Assembly: GCA_963717465.1 (NCBI GenBank)
Contig: OY970340.1
Location: forward strand, 296,366 to 360,365
Direction of reading: 5' to 3'
DNA length: 64,000 nt
DNA from: Candidatus Bathyarchaeota archaeon
GTDB lineage: Archaea > Thermoproteota > Bathyarchaeia > Bathyarchaeales > Bathycorpusculaceae
A program made the position numbers and the translations under genes. Numbering within the stretch: the first letter of the stretch is position 1; each line of letters opens with the position of its first letter. A model generated the notes under the pieces. It worked only from the letters and a program-made list of their open reading frames with translations. It had not been told where the DNA came from and did not search any database. Positions 7,285-53,163 of the stretch are shown here, piece by piece.

Positions 7285-8721
7285 ATGGTAGAGCAAGCCA
7301 ACAAATCAACGATTACTCTAACTCATAGTAACACAGTTTTAGGCATCGTAATGTTAGGCACCATGATGGGGGCACTCGACAGCACCATCGTGCTCCTTGC
7401 ATTTCCAACGATAAGCAGTAGCCTAAACTCTGACCTTGCAACTTCGATATGGATAATTCTCGCTTATCTTCTGGTCATCGCTGTAGCGACTACGCAAATG
7501 GGCAGGGTTGGAGATATCTATGGGAGGAGCCGAATATTCAATTTAGGCTTCGTGATTTTCACTATTGGCTCAGCGCTTTGCGGGTTCTCATCTAACATTT
7601 ACTTATTAATATCTTTTAGAGCATTCCAAGCATTAGGAGGAGCCGTTATGCAAGCCACCAGTGGAGCAATAATAGCAGACTATTTCCCAAGAGAAAAACG
7701 CGGTCGAGCATACGGCTTTAACTCCCTTGGCTTCACTAGCGGAGCGATGCTTGGCATAATTCTTGGCGGGGTAATCACTACTTACGCCAGCTGGCAGTAC
7801 ATTTTCTTCATAAACATCCCGATTGGAATAATCGCCGTCATAGCTGGATCAAAGTACCTCAAAGATGCTGGCAGAACACCCGCTAAGCTTAACCTAGTAG
7901 GCATGGGGCTACTTGCTTCAGGCTTGACATTGATATCTTTCGGATTGATAGATTTCGCTGCTGAAGGACTAAGCGCAACGAATATTTTCTTGACAGTCAT
8001 TGGAGCAGTGTTATTGCCCATCTTCTTCTGGTACGATCGAAGAATTAAAAACTCCCTGATTGATTACGAGGCTTTCAAGAGCAGGGTCCTACGTAATGCA
8101 ATATTGTCTGCCTTCTTCACAAGCGTAGGTTATTTTTCTGTAGTGTTCTTGGTTATCATGTACTTACAAGGCATAAGAGCCCTTTCGCCGCTTAATGCCT
8201 CGCTACTGCTGGTACCTGGATACGTAGCCGGCAGCTTCTTGGGCCCAATAATGGGCAGAGCTTCAGACAAGTACGGCTCAAGAGGAATAGCTACAACGGG
8301 CATATTCTTCCTGGCGTTGGCCATATTGATTTATCTTACGTTGGGTACTGAATCACCGCTTTACATCGTGCTTATTGCCTCAGCTGTCTCGGGTTTAGGA
8401 ACCTCTATGTTCTTCCCAGCTAACAACAGCGCTGTCATGGCAAATGCAAGAACTGGTTCATTTGGCAGCATCTCAGGTTTACTTCGGACCGTACAAAACA
8501 TTGGATTAGTCGGAAGCTATGTCTTGACCATCTCGGTCGCGGCAGCCTCAATACCCAGGCAAGTAGCTTTTGAAGTGTTCGTTGGAACAACCAAGCTTAC
8601 TGGTGGAGTGAGCCAAGCCTTCATTTACGGGATAGATCACGCATTCTACGCATCCATAATCATTCTTATAATCGCAGGCGTGCTATCCTTTATCAGAGGA
8701 AGAGATGTAAGAAAACCCTAG
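7285..8721 (+). CDS. MFS transporter, DHA2 (EmrB/QacA) type
   Basis: About 14 TMs; LDSTIV, GRVGDIYGR, WQYIFFINIPIG motifs. Confidence 0.9.
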   Translation: MVEQANKSTITLTHSNTVLGIVMLGTMMGALDSTIVLLAFPTISSSLNSDLATSIWIILAYLLVIAVATTQMGRVGDIYGRSRIFNLGFVIFTIGSALCGFSSNIYLLISFRAFQALGGAVMQATSGAIIADYFPREKRGRAYGFNSLGFTSGAMLGIILGGVITTYASWQYIFFINIPIGIIAVIAGSKYLKDAGRTPAKLNLVGMGLLASGLTLISFGLIDFAAEGLSATNIFLTVIGAVLLPIFFWYDRRIKNSLIDYEAFKSRVLRNAILSAFFTSVGYFSVVFLVIMYLQGIRALSPLNASLLLVPGYVAGSFLGPIMGRASDKYGSRGIATTGIFFLALAILIYLTLGTESPLYIVLIASAVSGLGTSMFFPANNSAVMANARTGSFGSISGLLRTVQNIGLVGSYVLTISVAAASIPRQVAFEVFVGTTKLTGGVSQAFIYGIDHAFYASIIILIIAGVLSFIRGRDVRKP

Positions 8722-8841
8722 AATCATGCACGAACCCAAAAAACCAGGCGACTATTAAAATCTAGAAATAGCTTGCTTTGATGACTTAATAAAAACTTTG
8801 CAAGGCGAAAATTTGGCAATGTGAAAGTGAGGAAAGTTTCT

Positions 8842-9054
8842 CTAAGAGGACCGTTTAGCTTCTTTAATTTGCTTTGTTATCTCAGAGGCCAAAACTGATA
8901 GGAACATGATGCTAAAAGCCGCCACTGCAATGCCCAACTTAAAAATCAAATCTATGTTCAAGAAGAAAAATGTAAAAAGAACGATAACTATCGTACATAT
9001 AACTACCACTTCTTCGATGGCGTCAAAATTCTTTAATGGATTTCCAAAACTCAT
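8842..9054 (-). CDS. small two-TM membrane protein
   Basis: 70 aa, two hydrophobic segments, basic tail. Confidence 0.55.
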   Translation of the reverse strand: MSFGNPLKNFDAIEEVVVICTIVIVLFTFFFLNIDLIFKLGIAVAAFSIMFLSVLASEITKQIKEAKRSS

Positions 9055-9286
9055 TTTGCGTCACTTTCTTGACCCTGACTTCTTATCAGCGAAAAATATT
9101 AACATTCTGTTGCTACAAGCCTTATTTCTTCATTCAGCAAACGCGAAGATGCAGATAAACGATATTTATGTCTTGTGGTTGCATCTCGGAAGCTCTGTTT
9201 CTTCCTTAAAGCTCAATAAACTTATTGAATTACTGATATAGAAACAACAAACAGATAAAACGGTAATTATTGTTTGCTATTGTTTT

Positions 9287-9385
9287 TTATGTCTTGGTTC
9301 TAAGCTCCAATCGAATACCATACAACACGACTGCGAATGAAACAACGATTACAACTACAGAAGCTGCATCAATTAGTCCAAACAT
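9287..9385 (-). CDS. 32-aa single-TM peptide, possibly KdpF-like
   Basis: MFGLIDAASVVVIVVSFAVVLYGIRLELRTKT*; GAAGGT RBS-like sequence, TATA-like box and shared operator upstream. Confidence 0.55.
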   Translation of the reverse strand: MFGLIDAASVVVIVVSFAVVLYGIRLELRTKT

Positions 9386-9451
9386 ATTTCTACCTTCTTT
9401 ATGCTTAGACTAGTTGTATGCTCGGGTAAATTTAAAGATGATTATGATTTG

Positions 9452-9468
9452 TTCATAATTCTTCTTAA
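9452..9468. promoter_or_regulatory. degenerate operator TTCATAA-N3-TTATGAA (site A)
   Basis: TTCATAATTCTTCTTAA, preceded by the same TTATGATTTG context as site B. Confidence 0.55.
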
Positions 9469-9556
9469 TAGTTAAACATATGTCTAAAAAAAGTTTATAT
9501 GTTGATTTTTCCTCAACGAGTCTAAAGTAACAAAACAAAAAGGAAAGTGAATAAGA

Positions 9557-9793
9557 ATGAAAGCTTACATACTCTTAAGCACCAAGCCTGGAACATCCTT
9601 GGAAGTTGTTGAGAGAATAAAAACTAAAGTAAAAGAAAACATTACTGCAGACGCAATTTTCGGTCGATATGACGCAATCGTCGTTCTCGAAGCTCAAGAA
9701 CTTGAAAAGATCAACCAAATAGTTTACAAAATAATCGAAAAAGACCCAAACGTAATCAAAACAGAAACGTCCATTGTGCTATCACCCATGTAA
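9557..9793 (+). CDS. stand-alone Lrp/AsnC ligand-binding (RAM) domain protein
   Basis: KAYILL...IFGRYDAIV...TETSIV; no HTH. Confidence 0.85.
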   Translation: MKAYILLSTKPGTSLEVVERIKTKVKENITADAIFGRYDAIVVLEAQELEKINQIVYKIIEKDPNVIKTETSIVLSPM

Positions 9794-9911
9794 TTGCAGC
9801 CAAAAACCTTTTCAGCCTTTTTTAGCTTCGATTGTGTCAAGAATTGTGTCGAAAGCAAAGAAAGGTGGAAAAATTTTTAGTTTTGCAAGGAGATCCTTTT
9901 AATGATTTTCA

Positions 9912-10208
9912 TTAAAGACACTTTGGCCCTTTATGAGCTTTAAGAACAATTGAGCTTACGGTACTTTTTACTCCTTTTATTTTCATTATCTTATTTTTCA
10001 GAATGTCTCTAAATTCTTCAATATCTGATGCAGAAACCATAGTTACAATATCAAATTCTCCAGTTACCTCATAGAGTTCTTCCAGATTTTTCAATTTGGA
10101 AAGCGACTCTAATACAATGTCCATTTCTGGAGATTCAACGAATATATCTACGAAAGCCAACAATTTTGGCATAATGTTCATCTTTCCATACTGGACGGAG
10201 TTCGACAT
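9912..10208 (-). CDS. stand-alone Lrp/AsnC ligand-binding (RAM) domain protein
   Basis: LYEVTGEFDIV...GVKSTVSSIVL; no HTH. Confidence 0.85.
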   Translation of the reverse strand: MSNSVQYGKMNIMPKLLAFVDIFVESPEMDIVLESLSKLKNLEELYEVTGEFDIVTMVSASDIEEFRDILKNKIMKIKGVKSTVSSIVLKAHKGPKCL

Positions 10209-10368
10209 ATTTATATCTTGTTGTCTCTGGTGTCGATAAATTTGTATTTTTCATTAACAATTGGTTAAAAACATGACAATAGAGTGAAAATTCGTCAATT
10301 ATATCTCAATATGCTATTCTAGAATGTTTGAAATTGGTGTAAAAATTTTTTTGAACGCGAATTAACCA

Positions 10369-10836
10369 TTAACCGTCGAATGCCTTGTAAATGTCTGGAT
10401 ACTGTTTTATTAATACTAGATTAATTCTCACTACATTGACGTACGGGTTCCCGAAAATCCAAAATGTCCCTTCCTGATTCTCATTCACTATGTTATTTAA
10501 TTCGTCGGTTGAGATTCCTGTGGCGTTGCTTATTCTGGGAACTTGTGAATATGCGTCCTGCAGTGTGATGTCTGGGTCTACACCTGATGCTGACGGCGAT
10601 GCTGTTTCGTTTCTCGGCTGAAAGAAAAGAGGAGATGTGAAATTTTGTACTATTAGATTTGATCCAACCGATTGCCCGTTGAGTTGAACTATTTCACCGT
10701 TAGCTTGGTAAGGGAAAAAAGCTTGACCTATACCTGTGATGAAAATTGGGTAAAAAATGCCGCAAATCAAGAATGAAGCCACTGTTATTCCTATAATAGG
10801 TTTGAAGTTCCATTTTTCTTTTTGCTGTTTCGTCAT
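10369..10836 (-). CDS. kdpC: K+-transporting ATPase subunit C
   Basis: N-terminal TM with YP, FPYQANG, SASGVDPDI, VNVVRINL. Confidence 0.92.
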   Translation of the reverse strand: MTKQQKEKWNFKPIIGITVASFLICGIFYPIFITGIGQAFFPYQANGEIVQLNGQSVGSNLIVQNFTSPLFFQPRNETASPSASGVDPDITLQDAYSQVPRISNATGISTDELNNIVNENQEGTFWIFGNPYVNVVRINLVLIKQYPDIYKAFDG

Positions 10837-10848
10837 GTTTGCATTCCT

Positions 10849-13026
10849 CTAAATGTGAAATACTCCGACTAAGAGCATGTCAATTAGTTTAATGCCTATA
10901 AATGGCACAATTATCCCGCCTACACCGTAAATTAAAGTGTTCTTAAGGAAAAGCGTCATTGTACTGGTTGGTTTAAAGGCGACACCTCGCATAGCAAGCG
11001 GAATTAACAGTGGAATTATTATCGCGTTGAATATGAGTGCAGACAACACAGCACTTTTAACACCTAACTGCAGTATGTTTAAGGCACCCAGTTCTGGCAA
11101 AGTAGCGGCGAAAATAACAGGCATTATTGCAAAGTACTTTGATACATCATTGGCGATGCTGAAAGCGGTGACTGCGCCCCGGGTCATTAACAGTTGTTTT
11201 CCAAGCATAACAACTTCGATTATTTTGGCTGGGTTAGATTCCAAGTCAACCATGTTAGCTGCCTCCTTAGCCGCCTCAGTACCAGAATTCATCGCCAAAC
11301 CAACATCAGCAACACTAAGCGCAGGAGCATCATTAGTCCCATCCCCAATCATAGCAACAATCCTATTCTCAGCCTGCTCCCGCTTAGCTATTTTGTACTT
11401 GTCTTCAGGCTTAGCTTGAGCAACATACTCGTCGATTCCAACCTCAGTGGCAATACTTCTTGCCGTAAATGGTTGATCGCCTGTAATCATTACAGGGCGG
11501 ATTCCCATAACTTTAAGGGCTTGTATCTTTTCCCTGATGCCTTCCTTGAGAACATCTTTTAACCTGATTATTCCTATAGGTACGCCGTTTCTTGCGACGG
11601 CTATTGGAGTTTCTCCAGCCGCGGAAACACCGTCTACAACTAAATCGTAATTTTTTGGAATGCTTGTCGATAGGCTTTTAATCGATTCTGGAGCGCCTTT
11701 CATTATTTCCAGTTCTGATTCTTGAGGTGTAGCTCGCTCTTCCCAGGTTAATAACGCGGTTTTTCGTCGAATTCGTGTTCTTTCGCCCATCGCTTTGCCG
11801 CCTTTAGGCAGTACGAGCCCCATTTGTGTTATTTTCACTCCGCTTGTTCGGGTGACAGCAGAGAACGGATATTTTTCGCAAGCTGCAAGAGAGTTTAGCT
11901 CTTTTGGCACGAACCCTTTCTCGTAAGCGAGCTTGAGGATGCTTCTTCCTTCAGGAGTGTCATCATGCCATGACGACAGGAAAGCAGCCTCACCCACATC
12001 CTCTTCCGTAAAGCGATCAAACGCGATAAATTCTATGGCTTGTCTATTGCCGACTGTAATTGTTCCTGTCTTATCAAGCAGCACTACGTCTGCATCTCCT
12101 GAAGTCTCTATAGCTCTACCTGATTTTGCGATTATTTTGCTCTTATAGAGGCGGGACATGCCCGAGAGGCCGATGGCTGGCAAAAGCGCGCCTATTGTTG
12201 TTGGAAGAAGGCAAACGTAGAGGGCTATAAGCACTGACAGGTCCGCTCCAAGACCAAGAGTCATTGACGTGCCAAGAAGTGCAAGTATGATTATGGTAAA
12301 TATAGCGGTTAAACCAATCAGAACTATTGTTATCGCAACTTCGTTAGGAGTCTTTGGCCGCTTTGAAGACTCCACCATCTTTATCATTTGATCGATGAAG
12401 GTTTCACCAGGATTAGTAGTAACTTTAGCTGTCAGGGTGTCGCTGACAACTTTTGAGCCTCCAATAAGAGAATCCCCAGGCGCCTTCCTAACAGGAGCTG
12501 ACTCACCAGTAACAAGCGACTCATCAACCATCGCAATCCCCTCAATAACATCAGCATCCAAAGGAACCACATCACCAGCCTCAATCTGAACCAGGTCGCC
12601 CCTTTTCAGCTCAGTTGATTTAACAGTCACAATCTTTCTCATCCATTCATCGGTAACTATTTTTTTACTTGACACCTCCATCTCCAGCTTCCTCAGACTC
12701 CCAGCAGTACTCTTCGCCTGCTGCTCAGCCAACGCATCAGACAAAGTACTGAACCAAACCGTAATCAGCAAGATGACAGCAACTTCCACATAGAAAACTT
12801 GCATGCTTGGGCTAGCTACAGGCACGAACGCTTGGGGAACTATGGCCATGGCGGCAACTATGAAGAAGGTGACTTCAACAATGAACATCACTGGATTTTT
12901 AAGCAACGATTTAGGGTTCAGGCGAACGACTGAGTCAACGAGTACTTTCCCAGATAAAGCAGACCTTAACCCGCCGGGCGTTGATTCTTTGGTTTTCTTT
13001 GAGTCTGCAGGTTTTACATTAGCCAA
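10849..13026 (-). CDS. kdpB: K+-transporting ATPase subunit B (P-type ATPase)
   Basis: KNPVMF, TGESAPV, DKTGTIT, GDGTNDAPAL, TRGAVTAFSIANDVSKYF. Confidence 0.96.
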   Translation of the reverse strand: MANVKPADSKKTKESTPGGLRSALSGKVLVDSVVRLNPKSLLKNPVMFIVEVTFFIVAAMAIVPQAFVPVASPSMQVFYVEVAVILLITVWFSTLSDALAEQQAKSTAGSLRKLEMEVSSKKIVTDEWMRKIVTVKSTELKRGDLVQIEAGDVVPLDADVIEGIAMVDESLVTGESAPVRKAPGDSLIGGSKVVSDTLTAKVTTNPGETFIDQMIKMVESSKRPKTPNEVAITIVLIGLTAIFTIIILALLGTSMTLGLGADLSVLIALYVCLLPTTIGALLPAIGLSGMSRLYKSKIIAKSGRAIETSGDADVVLLDKTGTITVGNRQAIEFIAFDRFTEEDVGEAAFLSSWHDDTPEGRSILKLAYEKGFVPKELNSLAACEKYPFSAVTRTSGVKITQMGLVLPKGGKAMGERTRIRRKTALLTWEERATPQESELEIMKGAPESIKSLSTSIPKNYDLVVDGVSAAGETPIAVARNGVPIGIIRLKDVLKEGIREKIQALKVMGIRPVMITGDQPFTARSIATEVGIDEYVAQAKPEDKYKIAKREQAENRIVAMIGDGTNDAPALSVADVGLAMNSGTEAAKEAANMVDLESNPAKIIEVVMLGKQLLMTRGAVTAFSIANDVSKYFAIMPVIFAATLPELGALNILQLGVKSAVLSALIFNAIIIPLLIPLAMRGVAFKPTSTMTLFLKNTLIYGVGGIIVPFIGIKLIDMLLVGVFHI

Positions 13027-14680
13027 AGCTGTTCACCAACCCTTTGAAAAATGATGCTATTGGTCCGATTGCTAGGAACGGGAAGAACGTTAACACGACC
13101 AATATGAGAATGCTGGCAATTAGGACCAAGGTGAATACAAATGTGTCGGTCTTGAGACCTGATGTTGTTCCTCCGCGTTTTCTGCCAATCATTGACCCTG
13201 AAAGCGCCATCAGTATGGCTATAGGTGCGTATCGTCCGACGAGCATTACTATGGCAGTGGCTATGTTAAAGAATGGAGTGTTCGCTTGGGCGCCAAGAAA
13301 GTCTGAACCATTGTTGGCGGCGGCGCTTGTGAATTCATAGAGGATTTCTGTATAGCCTATTGAATTTCCACTCACTCCAATTGCGCTTGCAGCACCACTA
13401 GCGTAAGCAACGACAGTGGGCACGAGTATGATGATGGGGTGAATGAGAAAAGCAATCATCACAAGCTTCACATCTCGCCCTGTGATTTTCATGTTCAAGT
13501 ATTCAGGAGTTCTTCCAGACATTAATCCAACTATAAAGACTGTTATAATGATGAACATAACCATATACATAAGCCCAACGCCTTTGCCCCCTGGAATTGA
13601 CTGGATGAACATGCCAAAAAAGGCAGAGAGAATTGTTAAGGGATGATTACCCAAGAGACTTGAGTTCAGTGACCCTGTTGTAGCTACAGTCGTTGTAACA
13701 GTATAGAAACTGGACATAAAGCCGCCGAATCGGACTTCTATGCCTGGAGCCACTAAGGGGAGCGATGGAATAAACGCTATAACGAGATTAATGGCGTAGA
13801 GAATGTATGCGCCCCACAGGAGTGGTCTGGATTCAGATTTTTTGCCCATCATTTGACCGAAGACAAAAATTAGTGCTGTGGGAAGTAGAAGCATTAATGA
13901 AATCAAGACGAGGTCTGAAATCGGCGACGGATTCGCGAAGGGGTATGCAGCGTTTGCACCATAATATCCGCCTCCGTTAGTTCCTAACTGCATAATCGAG
14001 TCAAGTGAAGCAACTGGCCCGACAAAAAGAGTTTGCGACGCTCCTTCTATAGTGTTAACTACAGTGTAACCGCTAAGCGTTTGGGGTACGCCGAGGGAAA
14101 GAAGGATAATCGAGGCTACTGTTGTAAGCGGGAGGAAAATTCTTGTGATGGATCTGGTGAAGTCAACGTAGAAGTTGCCCATGTCTTTTGCATCAGCCAC
14201 CAGTCCCCGAATAAATGCTATACCCATGCATAAGCCGGTTATTGCTGATGTAAACATTAACCACTGTAAAACACCCATTTGACTAAGGTACGAAAATGTT
14301 GTTTCGCCACTGTAATGCTGCAGATCAGTGTTTGTTACAAAAGATACCGCTTGCATAAAGGCTAAGTCTGGACTTAAACCAGGAAAATGCATGGGATTAA
14401 GCGGCAAATAACCCTGGAAAACCATTATCAGAAAGCTGATAACAAGCATTACAATGTTTACTAGTAAACCTGAGAGGAAGTACTGTTTCCAACCCATCGT
14501 CTGCTCGGCGTTTACGCCAGTGATTTTGTAAAGAAAGTTTTCGATGGGATTAAAAATTTTGTCTAGGCGGCTTGGTTTCCGCTTAAAGACCCCTGTGATA
14601 TAGGGCGCAATCAGCCAAGCTAAAAGCACGGTTACGCCAATAGTAAGAATGACTGTTAGAGCCTGACCCGCATCTATCAA
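13019..14680 (-). CDS. kdpA: K+-transporting ATPase subunit A
   Basis: SFVTNTDLQHYSGE, LGTNGGG, GRTPEYL, SAAANNGS filter motifs. Confidence 0.96.
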   Translation of the reverse strand: MIDAGQALTVILTIGVTVLLAWLIAPYITGVFKRKPSRLDKIFNPIENFLYKITGVNAEQTMGWKQYFLSGLLVNIVMLVISFLIMVFQGYLPLNPMHFPGLSPDLAFMQAVSFVTNTDLQHYSGETTFSYLSQMGVLQWLMFTSAITGLCMGIAFIRGLVADAKDMGNFYVDFTRSITRIFLPLTTVASIILLSLGVPQTLSGYTVVNTIEGASQTLFVGPVASLDSIMQLGTNGGGYYGANAAYPFANPSPISDLVLISLMLLLPTALIFVFGQMMGKKSESRPLLWGAYILYAINLVIAFIPSLPLVAPGIEVRFGGFMSSFYTVTTTVATTGSLNSSLLGNHPLTILSAFFGMFIQSIPGGKGVGLMYMVMFIIITVFIVGLMSGRTPEYLNMKITGRDVKLVMIAFLIHPIIILVPTVVAYASGAASAIGVSGNSIGYTEILYEFTSAAANNGSDFLGAQANTPFFNIATAIVMLVGRYAPIAILMALSGSMIGRKRGGTTSGLKTDTFVFTLVLIASILILVVLTFFPFLAIGPIASFFKGLVNSFG

Positions 14681-14886
14681 TTATTTCAAAACTCCAAGGC
14701 GCATTTACGTTCACTATGGCTCCTACCTTAAATGAGTACCTGATTATCAGTTGTTCTTCCAAAACACCTATGTCTCTTATAAGGATTCAGGAAAGTCTTG
14801 TTTACAGTTAAATTGCACCGATTAATTTTATCGAAACGTCTAAGAACAGCTGTTTTCACCATGCTTTCATTCCCAGCGGAGATGCT

Positions 14887-15174
14887 TTAGCAAATTGCTT
14901 TATCTTTGCACCTGCGTCCTTTATGTGGTTGCAACACAATCGTGCTTATAGTACTTTTTACTCCGTCTATTTTCATAATATGCTTTTGCAAAATATCCCT
15001 AAATTCTTCCAGCGTAGAAGTGCTAACCAACGTTACAATATCATATTCGCCTGCAACTTCGTAGACTTCCTCGATACTCTCAAGTTTGGACAAGGCTGCA
15101 ACTACACTATCTATTTGTGTGGATTCAGCAAAAATATTAACCGATGCTAAAAGGCGTTGCATACAAAGTCCCAT
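14887..15174 (-). CDS. stand-alone Lrp/AsnC ligand-binding (RAM) domain protein
   Basis: VYEVAGEYDIV...GVKSTISTIVL; close paralog of 9912-10208. Confidence 0.85.
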   Translation of the reverse strand: MGLCMQRLLASVNIFAESTQIDSVVAALSKLESIEEVYEVAGEYDIVTLVSTSTLEEFRDILQKHIMKIDGVKSTISTIVLQPHKGRRCKDKAIC

Positions 15175-15327
15175 CTTATTATTTTGATATTAGGCCATCG
15201 AAATGGCAAAATATAGGTAAAGAACATTGATTCATCGTGGAATCTTTTTTAGTAAAGTGCATCCCGAAACCTTCTCATGATTCTCATAGGAACATAAACT
15301 CGTTTATATAAGGTTGGTTATGATTTG

Positions 15328-15344
15328 TTCATAATTATTATGAA
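15328..15344. promoter_or_regulatory. palindromic operator (site B)
   Basis: TTCATAATTATTATGAA, about 15 bp upstream of a minus-strand TATA box (15303-15312). Confidence 0.75.
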
Positions 15345-15461
15345 AAGTTAGAAAAACATCCTTAATTTTCGAAATAGGTTCAACATTTGCTCAACATATA
15401 GCTAAAATTAAAAAACAAATATAAAATAAAACCTTAATAAACAAGAATGAAACATCAATAT

Positions 15462-15818
15462 TCAAAGAGCTTGTTTACACGCATCTTCTTTTACAACGTT
15501 TAAAGTAGCAAGGGTTAGAGTTGTTTTAATGAAACGAACTGATAAAAGTTCTTTAAAAAAAATGTTAAGGCTGTAGTCATCCTTGAACCTAGTAAACACT
15601 GCAATGTCGAAATCCCCGGTTATCTCATATACGCAGAAAACATTCTGGTAACTAGCGATCTTTTTTTCAACCTCAGCAAGATGCTTTCCCTCAACTTGAA
15701 TTAGTAACATTAGGGTTAAATCGTCACCAGGTTTAACTGAACCAATTACCCCAACGTAATCTGTTGAAACATCGCGCTTGTTTGTTGCAGCAAAGGCTAA
15801 CCTATTTTTTTGTGCCAT
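15462..15818 (-). CDS. Lrp/AsnC ligand-binding domain protein lacking an HTH
   Basis: VYEITGDFDIAV...TTLTLATLNVVKE; directly downstream of glnA. Confidence 0.8.
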   Translation of the reverse strand: MAQKNRLAFAATNKRDVSTDYVGVIGSVKPGDDLTLMLLIQVEGKHLAEVEKKIASYQNVFCVYEITGDFDIAVFTRFKDDYSLNIFFKELLSVRFIKTTLTLATLNVVKEDACKQAL

Positions 15819-15846
15819 CCAAACCTCACTTTTGGGACAGCCCGGT

Positions 15847-17313
15847 TTAGTAATCGAGGTATTTCATGATCTCCCATGGTGAAACGTAGAGACAGTACTG
15901 ATTCCAATCGTTAGTCTTAAGGTCCACAAAGGCATCAAATATGTGGCTTCCAAGTGCACGTTGAAGTACTTCGTCGCTTTTCAGTTCTTCAAGAGCAGCC
16001 TTTAACGTTGTAGGAAGTTCTTTGATTCCAAGGGACTTGCGCTTTTGAGAAGAGAGCTTGTAGACGTCTTCGTCGACTGGATTTCCAGGGTCAATCTTTT
16101 TCTTCACGCCGTCAAGCCCTGCCATTAGCAGACATGAGAACGCCAAGTAGGGATTGCAGGAAGGGTCAACTCCTCGGTACTCCACTCTTTTTTGGGCAGC
16201 AAACTCTTTACCCTTATAGTACAATGGTATGCGAGCTAGTGCAGATCTGTTTCGTCTTGACCACATGACATAAATTGGTGCTTCAAAACCGGGTACAAGC
16301 CGTTTGTATGAGCTTATCGTTGGGCAGCAAATTGCAGTTAAAGCCCTTGCGTGTTCCAATAGGCCGCCTAAGTAGTATCGTCCAGCTTGGCTTAATTCAG
16401 CGTAATTGTCGCTTTCATCGTACATGGCGTTTTTCCCTTTAGACCAAATTGACTGGTGAACATGCATTCCACTTGCATTGTCCAAGTAAACAGGCTTTGG
16501 CATGAAAGTTGCAATTAAACCGTATTTGTGAGCAATGTTCTTTGCAACAAATTTATAGTATAACGCTCTGTCTGCGGTTTCTATTAGCGGACCGTATTTG
16601 TAGTCGATTTCCACTTGACCGACAGTAGCAACTTCATGGTGATGCTTTTCAATGGTTAATCCAAAATTATCCTCCAGCACTTGCGATGTTTCGTTACGGA
16701 AAGCAACTGTCGTATCTTCTGGTGGCGTTCTGTAATAGGCTTCCTTTGGCCTCATGACGTAACTACCAGGGGTTGTTTCTGGTGACTGAGGCACTACTCT
16801 TGGAGCGCCCCATGAATCACCTTCTCCGCCTCTTGGACTTACCCAAAGATCCCATACGAGCTTAGTTGGGTCAATAGATGAAAAGACAAAGAACTCCAAT
16901 TCTGGAGCGAAGTATCCAGTATAGCCCATTGCTGAAGCTTCTGCTACTGCTCTTTTGGCTACGTAACTCCGAGGGTCGACAACTGATGGTTCTTTTCCTC
17001 CGTAAGCTTCATAGACATCTCCCAGCACTATGGCGCTTTTCTGTTTTTCATCATTAATCCAGGGCATTATCGATAAGGTTTGAGCGTCAGGCATGAAAAT
17101 CATGTCTGATTCTTCGATCGATTTGAAACCTCTGACAGAAGAACCGTCAAAGCCTATTCCGGCAGTGAATGCTTCGCCACTAAGATAGTCTCTCGCGGGA
17201 AGCACCATGTCCTGCAATATTCCGCGTATGTCAACGAAAGCTGAATGTACCCACCTTACGTTGTTGGCTTTCAGGCTCCCTATTGCTTTTTGTATGGAGT
17301 CGTTTTTTTCCAT
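15847..17313 (-). CDS. glnA: glutamine synthetase type I
   Basis: FDGSSVRGF, HHHEVA, TFMPKP, NASGMHVHQS, KRLVPGFEAP, NRSALARIP. Confidence 0.97.
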   Translation of the reverse strand: MEKNDSIQKAIGSLKANNVRWVHSAFVDIRGILQDMVLPARDYLSGEAFTAGIGFDGSSVRGFKSIEESDMIFMPDAQTLSIMPWINDEKQKSAIVLGDVYEAYGGKEPSVVDPRSYVAKRAVAEASAMGYTGYFAPELEFFVFSSIDPTKLVWDLWVSPRGGEGDSWGAPRVVPQSPETTPGSYVMRPKEAYYRTPPEDTTVAFRNETSQVLEDNFGLTIEKHHHEVATVGQVEIDYKYGPLIETADRALYYKFVAKNIAHKYGLIATFMPKPVYLDNASGMHVHQSIWSKGKNAMYDESDNYAELSQAGRYYLGGLLEHARALTAICCPTISSYKRLVPGFEAPIYVMWSRRNRSALARIPLYYKGKEFAAQKRVEYRGVDPSCNPYLAFSCLLMAGLDGVKKKIDPGNPVDEDVYKLSSQKRKSLGIKELPTTLKAALEELKSDEVLQRALGSHIFDAFVDLKTNDWNQYCLYVSPWEIMKYLDY

Positions 17314-17383
17314 TATATTTTCACCATTTAAAGATCTTATCTATCAATTCGAACAATTCTAATTTAAATGTAGTTAAGATTTG

Positions 17384-17400
17384 TTCATACATTTTATGAA
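17384..17400. promoter_or_regulatory. palindromic operator (site C) in the glnA promoter
   Basis: TTCATACATTTTATGAA upstream of a TTTAAATT TATA box; extra half-site ATGAACAAAT at about 17435-17444. Confidence 0.75.
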
Positions 17401-17652
17401 ATAATAGAAATATTTTTAAATAAATTTTATAATCATGAACAAATGAAGTCTATAACAAAGTTATAATGCTCAAATCAATAACCAGCTGGAATGGAGGATA
17501 TTTAGCACTTAATAGTTTTAGATGAACCATAACTGTCTAACTAGTCAAAATTCAAGCAAATCGACTTTAATCTGAAAAAGATTGAATTTTCTTAAAAAAA
17601 GAAAAGATTAATCTTAGCGGGTTAGGTAGTAGCTGCCAGTTTTTCTGAGCTG

Positions 17653-19155
17653 TCAGGATTCTTTGCCGCCTGGGTAGGGGAAGATGCGTGATTCTTTGGT
17701 TCTTGAGTTCAGGAGGAAGTATCCAAGTCCTATAGTCATCCACAGGGCAACTACTCCTACTGCAATTAAACACGCTAGCTGCGTGGATCCTCCACCCATT
17801 ACAGCTAGCCATATCACCGCAATTAGCATGATTACGTTAGCTGCTAAGCCTGCAATTGGGACTACGTATTTTGTAAGAATTGAACGTCTTTCTCTTGACA
17901 GCGCGTATACTGCGATGAGGCATGTTACACCGTAAAGCAGGAACGTTCCAAAGTTGCATAAGTATGTGATAGCACTCAAGTTCGTTAGCGATAGTACACC
18001 AAATGTGCCTATGCCGGCTGTAACAAGAGTTAGCACCCATACGCCAATAGCAGGAGTCCCAAATCTTAAGTTAAGTTTTCCGAGCGGTTCAGGTACCTCG
18101 GAGTCTCGACTGATTGCGTAAGTCACTCTTACTCCAGTGTTCATGCATGACAGCGTTGTACCAAGTATTGCTGCAGCAACTACCGCAGCTACGACGATCA
18201 TAACAACGAAGCCTCCGCCGCCAAATAAGCCATTAACCGATTGCATTATCATATCACCTAGAGGCGAGTTAGAAGCGGCTGCTGCTGCAAATGTGTATTT
18301 TGAGTTGATCCAGTATTGCATGCCGAAGTATTCGAGTAGATAGCAGAACGCCCCTTGTATGATGAGCGAGAGAATGATCGCTTTTGGGACATCTTTGGGG
18401 TTTTTTGCTTCTGAGCCCAATGCAGTAACTGATTCGAAGCCGACTAGAACGAGTATAGCTATTGTCGCCTGAAACAGCATGTGGCTTGCACTGCTTGGAA
18501 TCAGCACGCTAACAGCATTTGGGAAATAGAACGATACTTTGTCAGGGTTTAAGAAGCGATAAGCAAGAGCAATACCAGTAACGCCAATAAGCATGACGAT
18601 TTGTGCAATATTTATCATCAGGTTTGTTCTTGTTGAGCCGTTAATCCCTCTGTAAGCGATAAATCCTACTACGACGCTAAACGCAACGGCTATTGCAACT
18701 TCAGTTATCGGACTAATCGCGATGCCTACTGTTGAGAGGATGTATGTTATGAAAAAACCCATCATTGCAACCATGACACCGGGATAGACCCAGTAGTATA
18801 AGTGTGAAAGCCAACCGATGATGAACTTTGCGTTTCTGGCTGTTTTGTTGCTGCTACCCTTGTCAAGCAAAGCTCGCTGAGCAAAGTAGTAAGAGCTGCC
18901 TGCACCAGCATCTGGATACCGACGGGACAGCCATGAATATGAAGCGGCGGTTAAGAAAGCTAATATCAGCGCTAAAAACAAACCTGACCATATGTCAGGA
19001 GCAGTGGAGACGCCTGAAGGGTCAACTTGAGCAGCCTGTATTTCGTAAGTTAGCCATAGGAAAGCTCCCGGCGCTATCAGCGCCATCGCGTTAATAGTTA
19101 ACCCCGTGAGGCTTAATGACTTCTTCATCTGGGGTGAGCTTTGATCACTTGCCAT
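17653..19155 (-). CDS. APC-family amino acid permease
   Basis: About 12 TMs; LIAPGAF, AGSSYYF, LVGFESVTALGSEAKNP. Confidence 0.9.
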   Translation of the reverse strand: MASDQSSPQMKKSLSLTGLTINAMALIAPGAFLWLTYEIQAAQVDPSGVSTAPDIWSGLFLALILAFLTAASYSWLSRRYPDAGAGSSYYFAQRALLDKGSSNKTARNAKFIIGWLSHLYYWVYPGVMVAMMGFFITYILSTVGIAISPITEVAIAVAFSVVVGFIAYRGINGSTRTNLMINIAQIVMLIGVTGIALAYRFLNPDKVSFYFPNAVSVLIPSSASHMLFQATIAILVLVGFESVTALGSEAKNPKDVPKAIILSLIIQGAFCYLLEYFGMQYWINSKYTFAAAAASNSPLGDMIMQSVNGLFGGGGFVVMIVVAAVVAAAILGTTLSCMNTGVRVTYAISRDSEVPEPLGKLNLRFGTPAIGVWVLTLVTAGIGTFGVLSLTNLSAITYLCNFGTFLLYGVTCLIAVYALSRERRSILTKYVVPIAGLAANVIMLIAVIWLAVMGGGSTQLACLIAVGVVALWMTIGLGYFLLNSRTKESRIFPYPGGKES

Positions 19156-19279
19156 TTATCTTCTCCTCTGGAAAACTTTTCTTAAGCAAGTTATTGTTCT
19201 TGTTTAGTTTTTGAAATTGTATAGAATTGTTTATTTCGAATGTGAATACGCTTGTTGCTGATTTAGTTGATGCTTTCAT
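19145..19279 (-). CDS. putative 44-aa leader (upstream) ORF overlapping the permease start
   Basis: GGTGA RBS 5 nt before ATG; MKASTKSATSVFTFEINNSIQFQKLNKNNNLLKKSFPEEKINGK*. Confidence 0.4.
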   Translation of the reverse strand: MKASTKSATSVFTFEINNSIQFQKLNKNNNLLKKSFPEEKINGK

Positions 19280-19342
19280 TTCTGTCACCAATTAATTTAG
19301 CTATGTGTATGTTCAGTTAAATATAAATATAGTTAATAATTG

Positions 19343-19359
19343 TTCATAAGTATTATGAA
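19343..19359. promoter_or_regulatory. palindromic operator (site D) in the permease promoter
   Basis: TTCATAAGTATTATGAA upstream of the TATA-like TTTATATTTA on the minus strand. Confidence 0.75.
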
Positions 19360-19389
19360 AAAATGAAAAAATGTAGTATTATATGTCTT

Positions 19390-19956
19390 CTATATAGATA
19401 CTTGTCTCTTTATCGGATTGGGCTTTACTGTAACACGCAATTTAGTCAAGTTCTCTTTAATCTCTGCATTAATGCCCATGGCCGCGAAGTACGTTTCCAG
19501 AAAAATCTTGATAAAATCTTTGGTAACTTCCGACATCAAAATCAACGTAAAATCGTTGTTTGCGTTTCTTGTTAAGCGGTAGAAGTTACATGCCTCAAGC
19601 CTGAGCAAAAATTCCTCAACCCCATTTACTTTTGACCTCAACTGTTCCCAGTGAGATTTAGCAAGTTCTTTGTGTTCTTTCCAAAATTTCTCTCTGTTTG
19701 GAGAAGAAGATATGAGGTCAAGAAGCATAATCCAATGATCAATATCTAAGATTACATGCTCTCCATTAAGCAACATGTCCATGTAGGACTGAACTTTTTT
19801 CTTTACAGCAGGATCTTCGAGGGCTTTATTCTCATTGTAAAATTTTAAAGCGCGACGTACTATTTCGCTTTGAGAAACTTCAGCTTCTGAACTTATTTTT
19901 TCCAATAAATCAGCTGTCGATTTATCAAAAGCTACAGTTACTCTAATCGGATTCAA
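19390..19956 (-). CDS. CopG/ribbon-helix-helix transcriptional regulator with a C-terminal domain
   Basis: N-terminal RVTVAFD...SQSEIVRRAL RHH signature. Confidence 0.85.
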   Translation of the reverse strand: MNPIRVTVAFDKSTADLLEKISSEAEVSQSEIVRRALKFYNENKALEDPAVKKKVQSYMDMLLNGEHVILDIDHWIMLLDLISSSPNREKFWKEHKELAKSHWEQLRSKVNGVEEFLLRLEACNFYRLTRNANNDFTLILMSEVTKDFIKIFLETYFAAMGINAEIKENLTKLRVTVKPNPIKRQVSI

Positions 19957-20425
19957 TTTATTTACGCCTCATAACTTTCATTAAAACATATGTTCAATAT
20001 ATAATAAATCTTATAAACATTATGCTAGCAAATTTATCCTAAACCTATACAATATAATAATTTCTATTAAAAAATTAAAACAAACGTCTTTTTTATATTA
20101 CCCGAAGGCGATGTTTTTAAACAAAAAAAACAAAAATCAAACCTGCAGAAAACAAATGAACAGCAGAACGATGGCAAGGCTTTAAAGCTTAAGGGGGATA
20201 AAGGTTCAATAAATTCACAGATACAAAGATCTTTAAGCCAACTGCCGCCTTCAACTGTCCTGGTGCAAATCGCTTTAGGAAATCACGGTCAATTCAACTG
20301 GTGTAGATCAACCGCAGACAAACAAGCGCAAACATCTAAAGAAATACAGCAAGATAAAAACATTAAACGAAACACAGGCCAATTGCTACAACAATCCACG
20401 ACAATAAAAATAGTAAAAAGAGACT

Positions 20426-21124
20426 TCAGTCCTTTCGATGAAACTGGTTTTTTGCTGCTCCGCATATTGGGCAAACCCAGTTTTCTGGCAGTTTCTCGAA
20501 TGGCGTGCCTGGCTGGATACCGGAGTTTGGATCGCCCTGTGCTGGGTCATATACGTAACCGCAAACTTCACAAGCATATTTCGCGGCGTCCTTGATATCT
20601 TCCTTTTTTTCAGTTTGGGCAAATGTGGGAGCTGTCTTTGGCGTTGTTCCCCTCTTTACCTCATGATAGAAATCGTAAGTCATTTGTGGATCGTTGCTTA
20701 GGACTTTTGAATCAACTACTTCCCCCAAAAAGATTGTGTGGGTTTCTGCATCTATTTCATTTGTAACTTTCACTTCAAAGTATGCAACTGTATGGTTCAA
20801 AACTATTCGGGCACCAGTCTGGCCTACTTGATAGTCAACGCCTAAAAACTTGTTAGTGTCCCTTCCACATTTGAATCCGAAGTTTCCTATGAAAGAAAGC
20901 GGCGTGTCTTTTGAGAGAACCGAAACAGCGTAGAAACCATTTTGTTTGATGAGTTCATGGGTGAAGTTTTGCTTATTTATTGAGACAGCAACCAAGGGTG
21001 GTTGAGACGCAACTTGAACAACGGTGTTTGCAATCTGTCCGTTGCACCTACCTTCTTTCCCAGAAGTCACTACATAGACGCCATAACTTATCTTGTACAA
21101 ACCTTTAGGATCCAAACAAATCAA
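20426..21124 (-). CDS. flavin reductase-rubredoxin fusion (high-molecular-weight rubredoxin)
   Basis: [11 protein letters not shown] and THTIFLGEV flavin-reductase motifs; [10 protein letters not shown]...WVCPICG rubredoxin. Confidence 0.9.
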
Positions 21125-52548: not shown

Positions 52549-53163
52549 TTATAACGTGCTAACTGAATGTAGAAGTGAAGACTGACTAATGTTTTTTCCT
52601 TGTCTAGGCGAGAACGACCGAGTCTCAGGCGGTAGAATCAGCGATTCTATTCTTTTAAACGAGAACGGTTTGAGAACGAATCCTGTCTTACCTAAGACGG
52701 CAATGAAATTCTGAAAACGCAGAGGAGCATGATATCGTATTCGTTCTTCTGTCACCTTTTTGAAGAATGCTATGTAGTCTTCATAACTTTTGTGAACAGA
52801 GATCATGATGAAGTCTGAATCTAAACCTTGTCCTTCCAACTCGCAAAGTACTTCGGGTTGTTCATTTAGCCATTTCCGAATATTTGATAATTCTTCTGAT
52901 GACAGCAAGTAATTAGCTATTGAGCTAAAAGAGAATGCGATAATTTGGATTCCAATTTTAGCTAAGTTAGGAATCGCTGTGTATTCGCTTATGTAACCTT
53001 CCTTTTCCAACTCTTGCCTTCTCCGAGTTGTTGTTGTTTGAGACATACCCAAAATCTTGGATAGTTCCTTGTCGCTTGTTCTTGACTCATTAATCAAAGC
53101 GAACAAAAGCTTTATTTTTTCTTTATTTTTCCTTACCTCGTACTTGGCGCGTGTTTCTTGCAT
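52549..53163 (-). CDS. Lrp/AsnC-family transcriptional regulator
   Basis: SRTSDKELSKILGMSQTTTTRRRQELEKEGYI HTH plus ligand domain. Confidence 0.85.
   Translation of the reverse strand: MQETRAKYEVRKNKEKIKLLFALINESRTSDKELSKILGMSQTTTTRRRQELEKEGYISEYTAIPNLAKIGIQIIAFSFSSIANYLLSSEELSNIRKWLNEQPEVLCELEGQGLDSDFIMISVHKSYEDYIAFFKKVTEERIRYHAPLRFQNFIAVLGKTGFVLKPFSFKRIESLILPPETRSFSPRQGKNISQSSLLHSVSTL

Follow-up and report, generated by a model that had tools for sequence, protein, structure and literature searches.

A conserved three-box promoter module marks a putative nitrogen-assimilation regulon in Bathyarchaeia, with an adjacent RHH protein as the best candidate reader

Nitrogen control in the archaeal species that have been studied is built on NrpR and PII. 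In soils, peat and sediments the Bathyarchaeia rank with the most abundant archaea; to our knowledge nothing is known about the regulation of nitrogen assimilation in them, and our searches of the literature found no nitrogen regulator described for Bathyarchaeia and no RHH/V4R nitrogen regulator. The closest described system is the NrpR regulon of Methanococcus maripaludis and Methanosarcina mazei, which includes glnA and amt-type genes, uses inverted-repeat operators in promoters and is presumably tied to a nitrogen metabolite. NrpR consists of a winged helix and an NRD domain, and its operator, GGAA-N6-TTCC, lies after the TATA box. A second point of reference is NikR, a repressor of the RHH class with a C-terminal sensor domain, whose operator is GTATGA-N16-TCATAC (PMC7055735).

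The genome examined here (G000) comes from an uncultured Bathyarchaeia archaeon from soil, forms a single contig of 3.05 Mb and carries mcrA. A search of this one-contig genome for the NrpR regulatory domain (PF01995) gave no match, while matches were obtained in M. jannaschii and M. acetivorans, the two controls, and PII was not found in it either. In the window, the whole stretch of 64,000 nucleotides that was analysed, a first-pass annotation had proposed that an operator, TTCATAA-N3-TTATGAA, is shared by four minus-strand promoters. All four sites are present, at 9452, 15328, 17384 and 19343; the palindrome is exact at 15328 and 19343, has one mismatch at 17384 and two at 9452, where TTAAGAA forms the left half. 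Another palindrome-like match in the window, the fifth, at 52780, has neither a TATA box nor the extended context and was for that reason treated as chance. That context, which on the minus strand reads TTATGAACAAWTNWYAA, occurs four times in the window with at most one mismatch, versus 0.06 expected, a count reached in 0 of 100 shuffles; it is a real signal and a stronger one than the palindrome alone. A scan of the 3.05 Mb with a weight matrix covering columns -13 to +18 returned six sites at 34-48 bits, the next best match scoring 12.5 bits. Four of the six are those in the window and the other two lie at 2029048 and 2031362 of G000; all six are intergenic, and each is aimed at a start codon 62-194 nt downstream.

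The palindrome proposed as the operator is thus real, but it is not the whole element. The module consists of three 7-nt boxes in alternating orientation, H1 (TTCATAA), H2 (TTATGAA) and H3 (ATCWYAA), set in a 10-bp phase, exactly one DNA turn (TTCATAA-N3-TTATGAA-N3-ATCWYAA), with a consensus TATA box about 6 nt past H3 in each site. The annotation had put the sites about 15 bp upstream of the TATA box; in every copy the TATA box starts 16 nt beyond the palindrome, at column +21/22 counted from the T of TATGAA, and H3, which ends at +15, abuts the BRE position, which bears out the proposed placement just upstream of BRE/TATA. Among 43 sites from the genus, the flanks of which played no part in site selection and are yet conserved, the heptads occupy columns -11 to -5, -1 to +5 and +9 to +15 and the TATA box column +22, and sites picked solely by their position after RHH genes have an identical layout of heptads and TATA box. 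Upstream regions of tRNA genes were also tried as a source of a BRE consensus by which the BRE strength of the module promoters could be judged, and were too heterogeneous to align.

The four modules of the window all lie on the minus strand. Module A (19319..19359; 37 bits) starts 31 nt past the stop codon of the gene for a 188-aa RHH protein (19390..19956, minus strand) and stands ahead of an APC-family amino-acid permease gene (17653..19155, minus), which has a long leader with its ATG at +194. Module B (17360..17400; 39.8 bits) stands ahead of glnA-1, the gene for a type I glutamine synthetase (15847..17313, minus; ATG at +77), directly 3' of which lies the gene for a 118-aa RAM-only protein, RAM118 (15462..15818, minus). 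Module C (15304..15344; 48 bits) stands ahead of a gene for a 95-aa protein consisting only of the RAM (Lrp ligand-binding) domain (14887..15174, minus), which precedes kdpA, kdpB and kdpC (10369..14680, minus); co-transcription of kdpABC with this RAM gene is possible only, because a spacer of about 200 nt separates it from kdpA. The kdp cluster ends with a gene for a 98-aa RAM-only protein (9912..10208, minus). Module D (9428..9468; 39 bits), with the variant left heptad, stands ahead of the gene for a 32-aa single-helix membrane peptide (9287..9385, minus), and divergent from the latter is a gene for a 78-aa RAM-only protein (9557..9793, plus strand). A second copy of the peptide gene, at L001:5122-5220, has the same promoter, with a paralogous Module D at L001:5049 that carries the same variant heptad, and the ATG of the peptide is at +72/+73 in 10 intact copies from six genomes. 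The idea that the peptide is a displaced KdpF is unlikely, since the second copy is 1.7 Mb from kdp and both copies are paired with a divergent RAM gene. No KdpF-like ORF was seen in the spacer between the RAM gene and kdpA, and the 44-aa ORF before kdpA is not hydrophobic. When 8500-20500 was scanned against Rfam with an E-value cut-off of 1, no riboswitch or leader RNA turned up in the long leaders of the APC and RAM genes.

The annotation's view that the permease gene, glnA, the gene for the 32-aa peptide and the RAM-only gene before kdp share one cis-element is supported by the genomes of relatives. There the module also stands ahead of orthologous glnA genes (L053-L058) and of orthologues of the permease (L032, L033, L034, L043, L164 and L157), and in L034 and L043 Module C is retained before the RAM orthologue. 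Targets in relatives comprise glnA, amt, a CitMHS transporter, the APC permease and the RAM-only gene ahead of kdp, together with several families of micro-proteins of 20-70 aa; amt, CitMHS, glnA and the permease are the most widespread. Across genera the module stays ahead of orthologous genes while its third box and the spacers drift. Judged from these sequence comparisons, the module marks a putative nitrogen-assimilation regulon in one Bathyarchaeia family, with variants in two neighbouring families.

The adjacent RHH protein, which the annotation had named for gel-shift assays, proved on synteny and co-occurrence to be the best candidate for the factor that reads the module. It matches Pfam RHH_1 with an E of 5.9e-6, as do 55 of the 56 family members, and the profile of its family matches CopG and NikR. 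The N-terminus has the beta-alpha-alpha order with alternating base-reading residues in the strand, R-(I/V)-T-(V/I)-A, which is invariant in all orthologues (R5-x-T7-x-A9) and aligns with R4-L-T-I-T of CopG (R4-x-T6). In an AF2 model with a pLDDT of 93.9, residues 50-185 matched the folds of YslB (Z 8.5), H-NOX (8.4), Bet3 (8.2), the sensor domains of DmpR (7.3) and PoxR (6.9) and the V4R protein MJ1460 (5.8), all in the range where matches can be generic. A Pfam sequence search of the protein found no V4R or HNOB domain. Consistent as a set and of middling strength, the fold matches suggest that the C-terminal domain has a V4R/H-NOX-like sensor fold; a link between V4R and Bet3 has been reported (PMC2253512). 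Matches to NikR cover the RHH part only (residues 1-47/1-42), and no ACT-like chain is among the C-terminal fold matches listed.

The RHH gene ends 40-90 nt before a module in 16 of the 22 RHH-bearing genomes of the order, and one further genome of these 22 has a module in a divergent RHH promoter. Within family f1 the module pattern was found in 16 of 17 RHH-positive genomes, the seventeenth having a one-base variant; single off-consensus matches turned up in 2 of 19 RHH-negative genomes, and within two genera the RHH gene and the module covary in presence and absence. One genome without the RHH gene (G058) has three pattern matches and was an apparent counter-example, which dissolved when these proved to be insertion-sequence ends with a transposase ORF. 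The RHH gene of the window has its own promoter, with no module there. The five RHH-negative genomes of the genus were examined for target genes that stand without a module, and they lack the glnA and APC orthologues as well; the co-occurrence may therefore come from an entire set of nitrogen genes being gained or lost together rather than from the pairing of a factor with its site. PII is not a substitute there, as it was found in one of five genomes in each group, with no complementary pattern.

We put at roughly 0.6 the probability that the module defines a nitrogen regulon read by the 188-aa RHH protein, with activation as the favoured mode. In this mechanism the RHH domains would occupy the array as one dimer per box, all on one DNA face, and the V4R/H-NOX-like domain at the C-terminus would serve as the sensor of a small metabolite indicative of nitrogen status. 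The bound protein would contact TFB/TBP and so activate transcription, and under nitrogen shortage glnA-1, the transporters and the micro-protein set would be switched on. Activation is slightly favoured over repression, at odds little better than even, because the whole array is located on the upstream side of BRE/TATA.

The alternative that survives best retains the same factor and module and makes the RHH protein a repressor: binding at H1-H3 would block TFB at the BRE, a TGAACA-like box after the TATA box would sometimes be bound as well, and a metabolite such as 2-oxoglutarate would release the protein, in the manner of NrpR. Such occlusion is a real possibility because H3 touches the BRE, the 6 nt or so between the end of H3 and the start of the TATA box being where the factor would make contact. 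The TATA boxes are near-consensus and do not obviously need an activator, the TGAACA-like box is present between TATA and start, at +33 to +38, in the APC, peptide and small-ORF promoters, and most characterised RHH regulators (CopG, Arc, MetJ and NikR) repress. However, that box is missing from the glnA and amt promoters, the array is clear of both the TATA box and the expected start site, and among characterised archaeal factors (Ptr2, TFB-RF1, TrmBL1, SurR, Tgr) sites upstream of BRE/TATA activate and downstream ones repress. We regard repression as possible but less likely than activation.

It is rather doubtful that the module is instead read by an Lrp/FFRP-type factor, either Lrp-A, the full-length Lrp encoded just upstream of the RHH gene in most lineages, or another full-length Lrp, with the RAM-only proteins, encoded by five genes within the locus, modulating it through mixed oligomers and the RHH protein being a co-regulated member or partner. 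In every lineage examined outside the genus, the gene immediately before the RHH gene encodes a 154-170-aa protein with HTH_24 and RAM domains; within the genus, Lrp-A lies directly upstream of the amt module in G108 and G141, is flanked by the RHH gene and the amt module in G011 and is found elsewhere on the module-bearing contig in G013. Synteny alone cannot separate the two proteins as readers, because in most other lineages the immediate upstream neighbour of the RHH gene encodes a full-length Lrp. H1-N3-H2, a 17-bp palindrome with an A/T-rich centre, also has the size and centre of known archaeal Lrp boxes (Ss-LrpB, FL11), typical Lrp sites being AT-centred palindromes of 15-17 bp, but AT-centred palindromes of 13-17 bp are common to several factor families. 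The distribution of full-length Lrp did not track the site: about half of the 151 genomes sampled have an Lrp-A orthologue, among them 19 of 19 and 18 of 20 from two genera in which both the RHH gene and the module are missing. Conversely, RHH gene and module are present and no Lrp-A orthologue was found in G000, G100, G127 and G147. The closest relative of Lrp-A in G000 is RAM118, which is 43-50% identical to residues 51-164 of the full-length Lrp preceding the RHH gene in other lineages and has no HTH; the only other match is a 43% paralogue of a class found in nearly all genomes. At 33 of 80 Bathyarchaeia glnA loci the Lrp-A gene is oriented divergently from glnA, and a different palindrome, TGAAYR-N2-YRTTCA, is present in 54 of 72 Bathyarchaeia glnA upstream regions, so that this palindrome, rather than the module, is likelier to be the putative Lrp-A site.

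Of the two physiologies that the annotation had offered as examples for the regulon, the targets point to nitrogen, because in relatives the regulon adds amt, the CitMHS transporter and many micro-ORFs. A response to potassium or osmotic stress through K+/glutamate pairing is improbable. The module ahead of the RAM gene before kdpABC in G000 recurs in G003 and G013, and glutamine synthetase with an amino-acid permease could supply a glutamate pool; however, the link to kdp was not seen in G016, where no module was found on the kdp cluster's own strand, most module-bearing genomes have no kdp near their modules, the commonest targets in relatives are the nitrogen genes named above, and the spacer before kdpA contains TATA-like tracts. 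Least probable is that no dedicated factor exists and the module is a duplicated promoter cassette, a mobile element or the promoter class of a variant basal factor: the TATA box does belong to the conserved block and the G058 matches are insertion-sequence ends, but conservation extends over only about 45 nt with unrelated flanks and downstream genes, terminal repeats are absent, orthologous genes of different genera retain the block in front of them while its third box and spacers drift, and a basal factor would have to make contact 33 nt upstream of TATA, for which we know of no example.

If the RHH protein does read the module, G000, in which neither NrpR nor PII was found, would have a nitrogen control unlike the known archaeal ones, and the protein would add a class to the archaeal nitrogen regulators and put a V4R/H-NOX-type sensor fold to a new use. 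More speculatively, the RHH-V4R protein could be the master nitrogen regulator of Bathyarchaeia that lack NrpR and PII, with metabolite-responsive activation from three heptads at the BRE and a regulon rich in 20-70-aa micro-proteins and RAM-only sensors that would replace the post-translational control of Amt, glutamine synthetase and transporters by PII. A 40-bp site, a short target list and a single strong candidate put the proposal within reach of direct tests that need no culture, only synthetic DNA and a recombinant protein. The module can also serve as a search tool: several conserved families of micro-proteins emerge from it as probably involved in nitrogen control.

Compared with known systems, the proposed regulon resembles that of NrpR in being archaeal, in its glnA and amt-type genes, in its inverted-repeat promoter sites and in a presumed tie to a nitrogen metabolite. 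As the annotation had held, it is not an NrpR system: motif and position differ, the module lying wholly upstream of TATA, no NrpR regulatory domain was found in the genome, and the candidate is an RHH protein. An array directly upstream of BRE/TATA recalls the archaeal activators Ptr2, TFB-RF1 and LysM. In Pyrococcus FL11/DM1 a full-length Lrp system is paired with a RAM-only 'demi' protein, and RAM-only proteins are likewise encoded in this locus, which differs in having RAM domains without an HTH in G000 and a best candidate that is not an Lrp protein. The predicted C-terminal fold resembles that of V4R, H-NOX and Bet3 proteins, among which the phenol sensors DmpR and PoxR, MsvR and H-NOX offer the parallel of a small-molecule sensor attached to a DNA-binding domain, although the RHH protein differs in lacking a Pfam match to them; we know of no characterised case of such a domain fused to RHH. 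CopG, Arc, MetJ and omega bind as dimers side by side on short repeats about one turn apart, which the 10-bp phase of the module fits, and omega accepts heptads in direct and inverted orientation; these proteins, however, are 45-100 aa long, have no sensor domain and repress plasmid, phage or met genes, unlike the 188-aa protein. NikR shares the fusion of RHH to a ligand-sensing domain, the latter predicted from fold in the candidate, the base-reading R-x-T strand and the half-site core TATGA/TCATA in the relative orientation of H2 and H3, and the RHH domain of H. pylori NikR superposes on the model at 1.1 A over 42 residues. It differs in its ACT-like C-terminal domain for tetramerisation and nickel binding, where a V4R/H-NOX-like fold is predicted here, in its two boxes 22 bp apart as against three boxes 10 bp apart (N5 between hexamers), and in its targets, which in the regulon described here are nitrogen genes.

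The palindrome TTCATAA-N3-TTATGAA, which the first-pass annotation had proposed as an operator, is present at 9452, 15328, 17384 and 19343 with 2, 0, 1 and 0 mismatches, respectively. As had also been described, the four sites are embedded, on the minus strand, in a shared longer block with a TATA box after it. At 52780 there is a fifth but weak match, which lacks this context altogether and was set aside. When one mismatch is allowed, the window contains four copies of the 17-mer TTATGAACAAWTNWYAA, where 0.06 would be expected, and none of 100 shuffles had as many. Only two copies of the exact palindrome, and eight with one mismatch, exist in the 3.05-Mb genome, and a whole-genome scan with a 32-column weight matrix gave six sites at 34-48 bits, with the next best position at 12.5 bits. 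The two sites outside the window are at 2029048 and 2031362 (locus L001). Pattern searches in relatives also returned false positives, namely insertion-sequence ends in three copies in one genome (G058; L159, L160 and L161), which contain TTATGAACTCATCTCAA.

The anatomy of the element was derived from 43 sites in this genome and ten relatives, across which columns outside the search pattern are likewise conserved. Numbered from the T of TATGAA in the second heptad, it consists of three heptads at an exact 10-bp spacing and in alternating orientation: H1 (TTCATAA, columns -11 to -5), H2 (TTATGAA, -1 to +5) and H3 (ATCWYAA, +9 to +15), with a short C-T/C-A stretch 3' of H3 and a near-consensus TATA box beginning at +21/22. 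The operator originally proposed corresponds to H1 plus H2 and is retained, but the element is larger, as H3 and the TATA box belong to the same block, which we refer to as the module. H2 and H3 form a further palindrome that overlaps the first; variation between sites is lowest in H2 and the bases after it and highest in H1. The same layout is seen in a set of 16 sites picked purely by their position downstream of orthologues of the RHH gene discussed below, while more distant families retain H1-N3-H2 and the third box drifts. The module lies 62-83 nt from the start codon of glnA, amt and the peptide genes, with a GGTGA-type ribosome site, and 160-330 nt from that of the APC permease gene and the RAM gene; transcription is predicted to begin some 25 nt past the TATA box. 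Similarity between copies ends beyond about 45 nt, which rules out a duplicated cassette or mobile element.

The common theme of the genes behind the module is nitrogen uptake and assimilation. In this genome they are the APC permease gene; glnA-1, followed by a gene for a 118-aa RAM-only protein; a gene for a 95-aa RAM-only protein, with kdpABC and a further RAM-only gene behind it; two paralogous genes for a 32-aa membrane peptide; and a 24-aa ORF adjoining asnB. Conservation at orthologous genes bears out the link to glnA, preceded by the module in all six of its closest orthologues, and to the APC permease, preceded by it in relatives. Relatives also carry the module ahead of a KaiC-like ATPase gene and of amt, with a CitMHS transporter 1.7 kb further on. 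Their modules are mostly found ahead of conserved micro-ORFs (L165-L168, L140, L141, L178, L179, L041, L045, L166; L001:7424-7498), whose families comprise the 32-aa peptide, 20-24-aa products with a YFPHI/YFTHI-like end, 35-45-aa single-helix peptides ending in A-F-x-x-Y...R-K, 27-29-aa products with the pattern YAEKT...W.ESAL, proteins of 57-68 aa and a cysteine-rich ORF of 41 aa. A Pfam scan of members of 57-87 aa gave no match for any of those covered. The proposed extension of the regulon to kdp holds in part: the module precedes the RAM gene before kdp here and in two relatives (G003 and G013), but this arrangement is only partly conserved, and the RAM gene and kdpA, with a gap of about 200 nt between them, may or may not be co-transcribed. 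The two copies of the 32-aa peptide gene (9287-9385 in the window and L001:5122-5220) each lie 171 bp from a divergently oriented gene for a 78-aa RAM-only protein, and the location of the second copy far from kdp argues against the peptide being a displaced KdpF.

Close relatives of the glnA gene all come from Bathyarchaeia MAGs from bogs and soils, the genus itself being common in MAG sets from bog and Danish soil, and this closed Bathyarchaeia genome encodes an McrA homologue (G000:C1:1664367-1664747, L052; PF02249, E 1.9e-59). Neither an NrpR regulatory domain nor a PII protein was found in the single-contig genome, and PII is mostly absent from ten relatives as well. Our literature search turned up no publication that deals with how Bathyarchaeia regulate nitrogen metabolism, nor any that describes a nitrogen regulator of the RHH or V4R type.

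Across the two module loci of this genome, a DNA-binding domain is encoded by a single gene, that of a 188-aa RHH protein (19390-19956, minus strand), whose stop codon is followed after 31 nt by the module of the APC permease. The protein belongs to a family of about 800 clusters at 90% identity (161 at 50%) annotated as hypothetical or CopG-like. Its gene is present in 22 of the 151 genomes of the order; in 16 of the 22 the module begins 40-90 nt past the RHH stop codon, with amt, an APC permease, a KaiC-like gene or small peptide genes next, and one further genome has the module in the divergent RHH promoter. The pattern TTATGAAYNNWTCWYAA is found in 16 of 17 RHH-positive genomes of the archaeon's taxonomic family, with a one-base variant in the seventeenth, compared with single off-consensus matches in 2 of 19 RHH-negative genomes, all of these counts being drawn from related genomes and hence not from independent samples. 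Presence and absence of gene and module also covary within two genera. Because the RHH-negative genus members also do not have the glnA and APC orthologues, this co-occurrence may reflect the whole gene set.

The confident AlphaFold model of the protein (pLDDT 93.9) places the RHH domain at residues 1-47, and the strand R-(I/V)-T-(V/I)-A, invariant in all orthologues, aligns to the base-reading strand of CopG. Residues 50-185 match YslB, H-NOX, Bet3, the DmpR/PoxR phenol-sensor domains and the V4R protein MJ1460 with moderate Z scores of 5.8-8.5. These folds are one small-molecule-sensor class, and a V4R-Bet3 link has been described (PMC2253512). The conserved polar residues H67, D71, H102, E121, N124 and K172 may line a pocket. 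Within the genus the RHH gene has a conserved promoter of its own, TAATGTTTATATAAT (window 19957-20060; upstream of the orthologues in L137-L143), with a likewise conserved TGAAA-N3-TGTCAA-like box after the TATA box, in the window TGAACATATGTTTT, which may serve as an operator for the regulator's own gene.

A rival reader of the module is a full-length Lrp protein (HTH_24 plus RAM; for example L146:1015-1479 in a relative), whose gene lies directly upstream of the RHH gene outside the genus and, among the genus members examined, directly upstream of the amt module in two (G108, G141), between the RHH gene and the amt module in G011, and elsewhere on a module-bearing contig in G013. However, this Lrp is far more widespread than the RHH gene or the module, since almost every genome of two genera lacking both encodes it, and searches recovered no orthologue from this genome or from three others that are RHH- and module-positive. 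Its closest relative here, the 118-aa RAM-only protein encoded directly after glnA (15462-15818, minus strand), shares 43-50% identity with the full-length protein over the C-terminal two thirds of the latter and has no HTH; it looks like a truncated Lrp derivative kept as a ligand-binding protein. Another Lrp protein of this genome is encoded at 636185-636619. Of 80 glnA loci in Bathyarchaeia, 33 have the full-length Lrp gene next to glnA in divergent orientation, and a different palindrome, TGAAYR-N2-YRTTCA, lies upstream of glnA in 54 of 72 Bathyarchaeia regions (L059-L132), whereas it occurs in 0 of 72 coding controls and in 1 of 72 shuffled sequences. This palindrome is probably an ancestral glnA operator of the class; in this genome it is found ahead of glnA-2 (G000:C1:2694779), and a related box lies ahead of the amt pair (L133:1340-1375). 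Of two tandem amt genes (G000:C1:1241229-1242489; L134, L135), the second aligns to the Pfam model as two segments that are not in one reading frame, and it may be frameshifted. From the distribution of Lrp and its association, together with that of the palindrome, with glnA, we therefore infer, tentatively, that TGAAYR-N2-YRTTCA is read by Lrp and the heptad module by the RHH protein.

Repression by the module-bound factor is a serious alternative to activation, because most RHH regulators are repressors, H3 makes contact with the BRE, and in some promoters the TATA box is followed by an additional TGAACA-like box. The heptad array, however, ends where the BRE begins, and in the characterised archaeal cases of Ptr2, TFB-RF1, TrmBL1 and SurR sites in that position activate. 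Activation by the RHH protein is for this reason slightly favoured. Its dimers would sit side by side on one face of the DNA, as RHH dimers of CopG, Arc, MetJ and omega do, an arrangement that fits the one-turn spacing of the three boxes in the module. The H2/H3 core, TATGA...TCATA, also resembles the NikR half-sites GTATGA/TCATAC (PMC7055735), although the half-sites of NikR are spaced two turns apart whereas those of the module are spaced by one.
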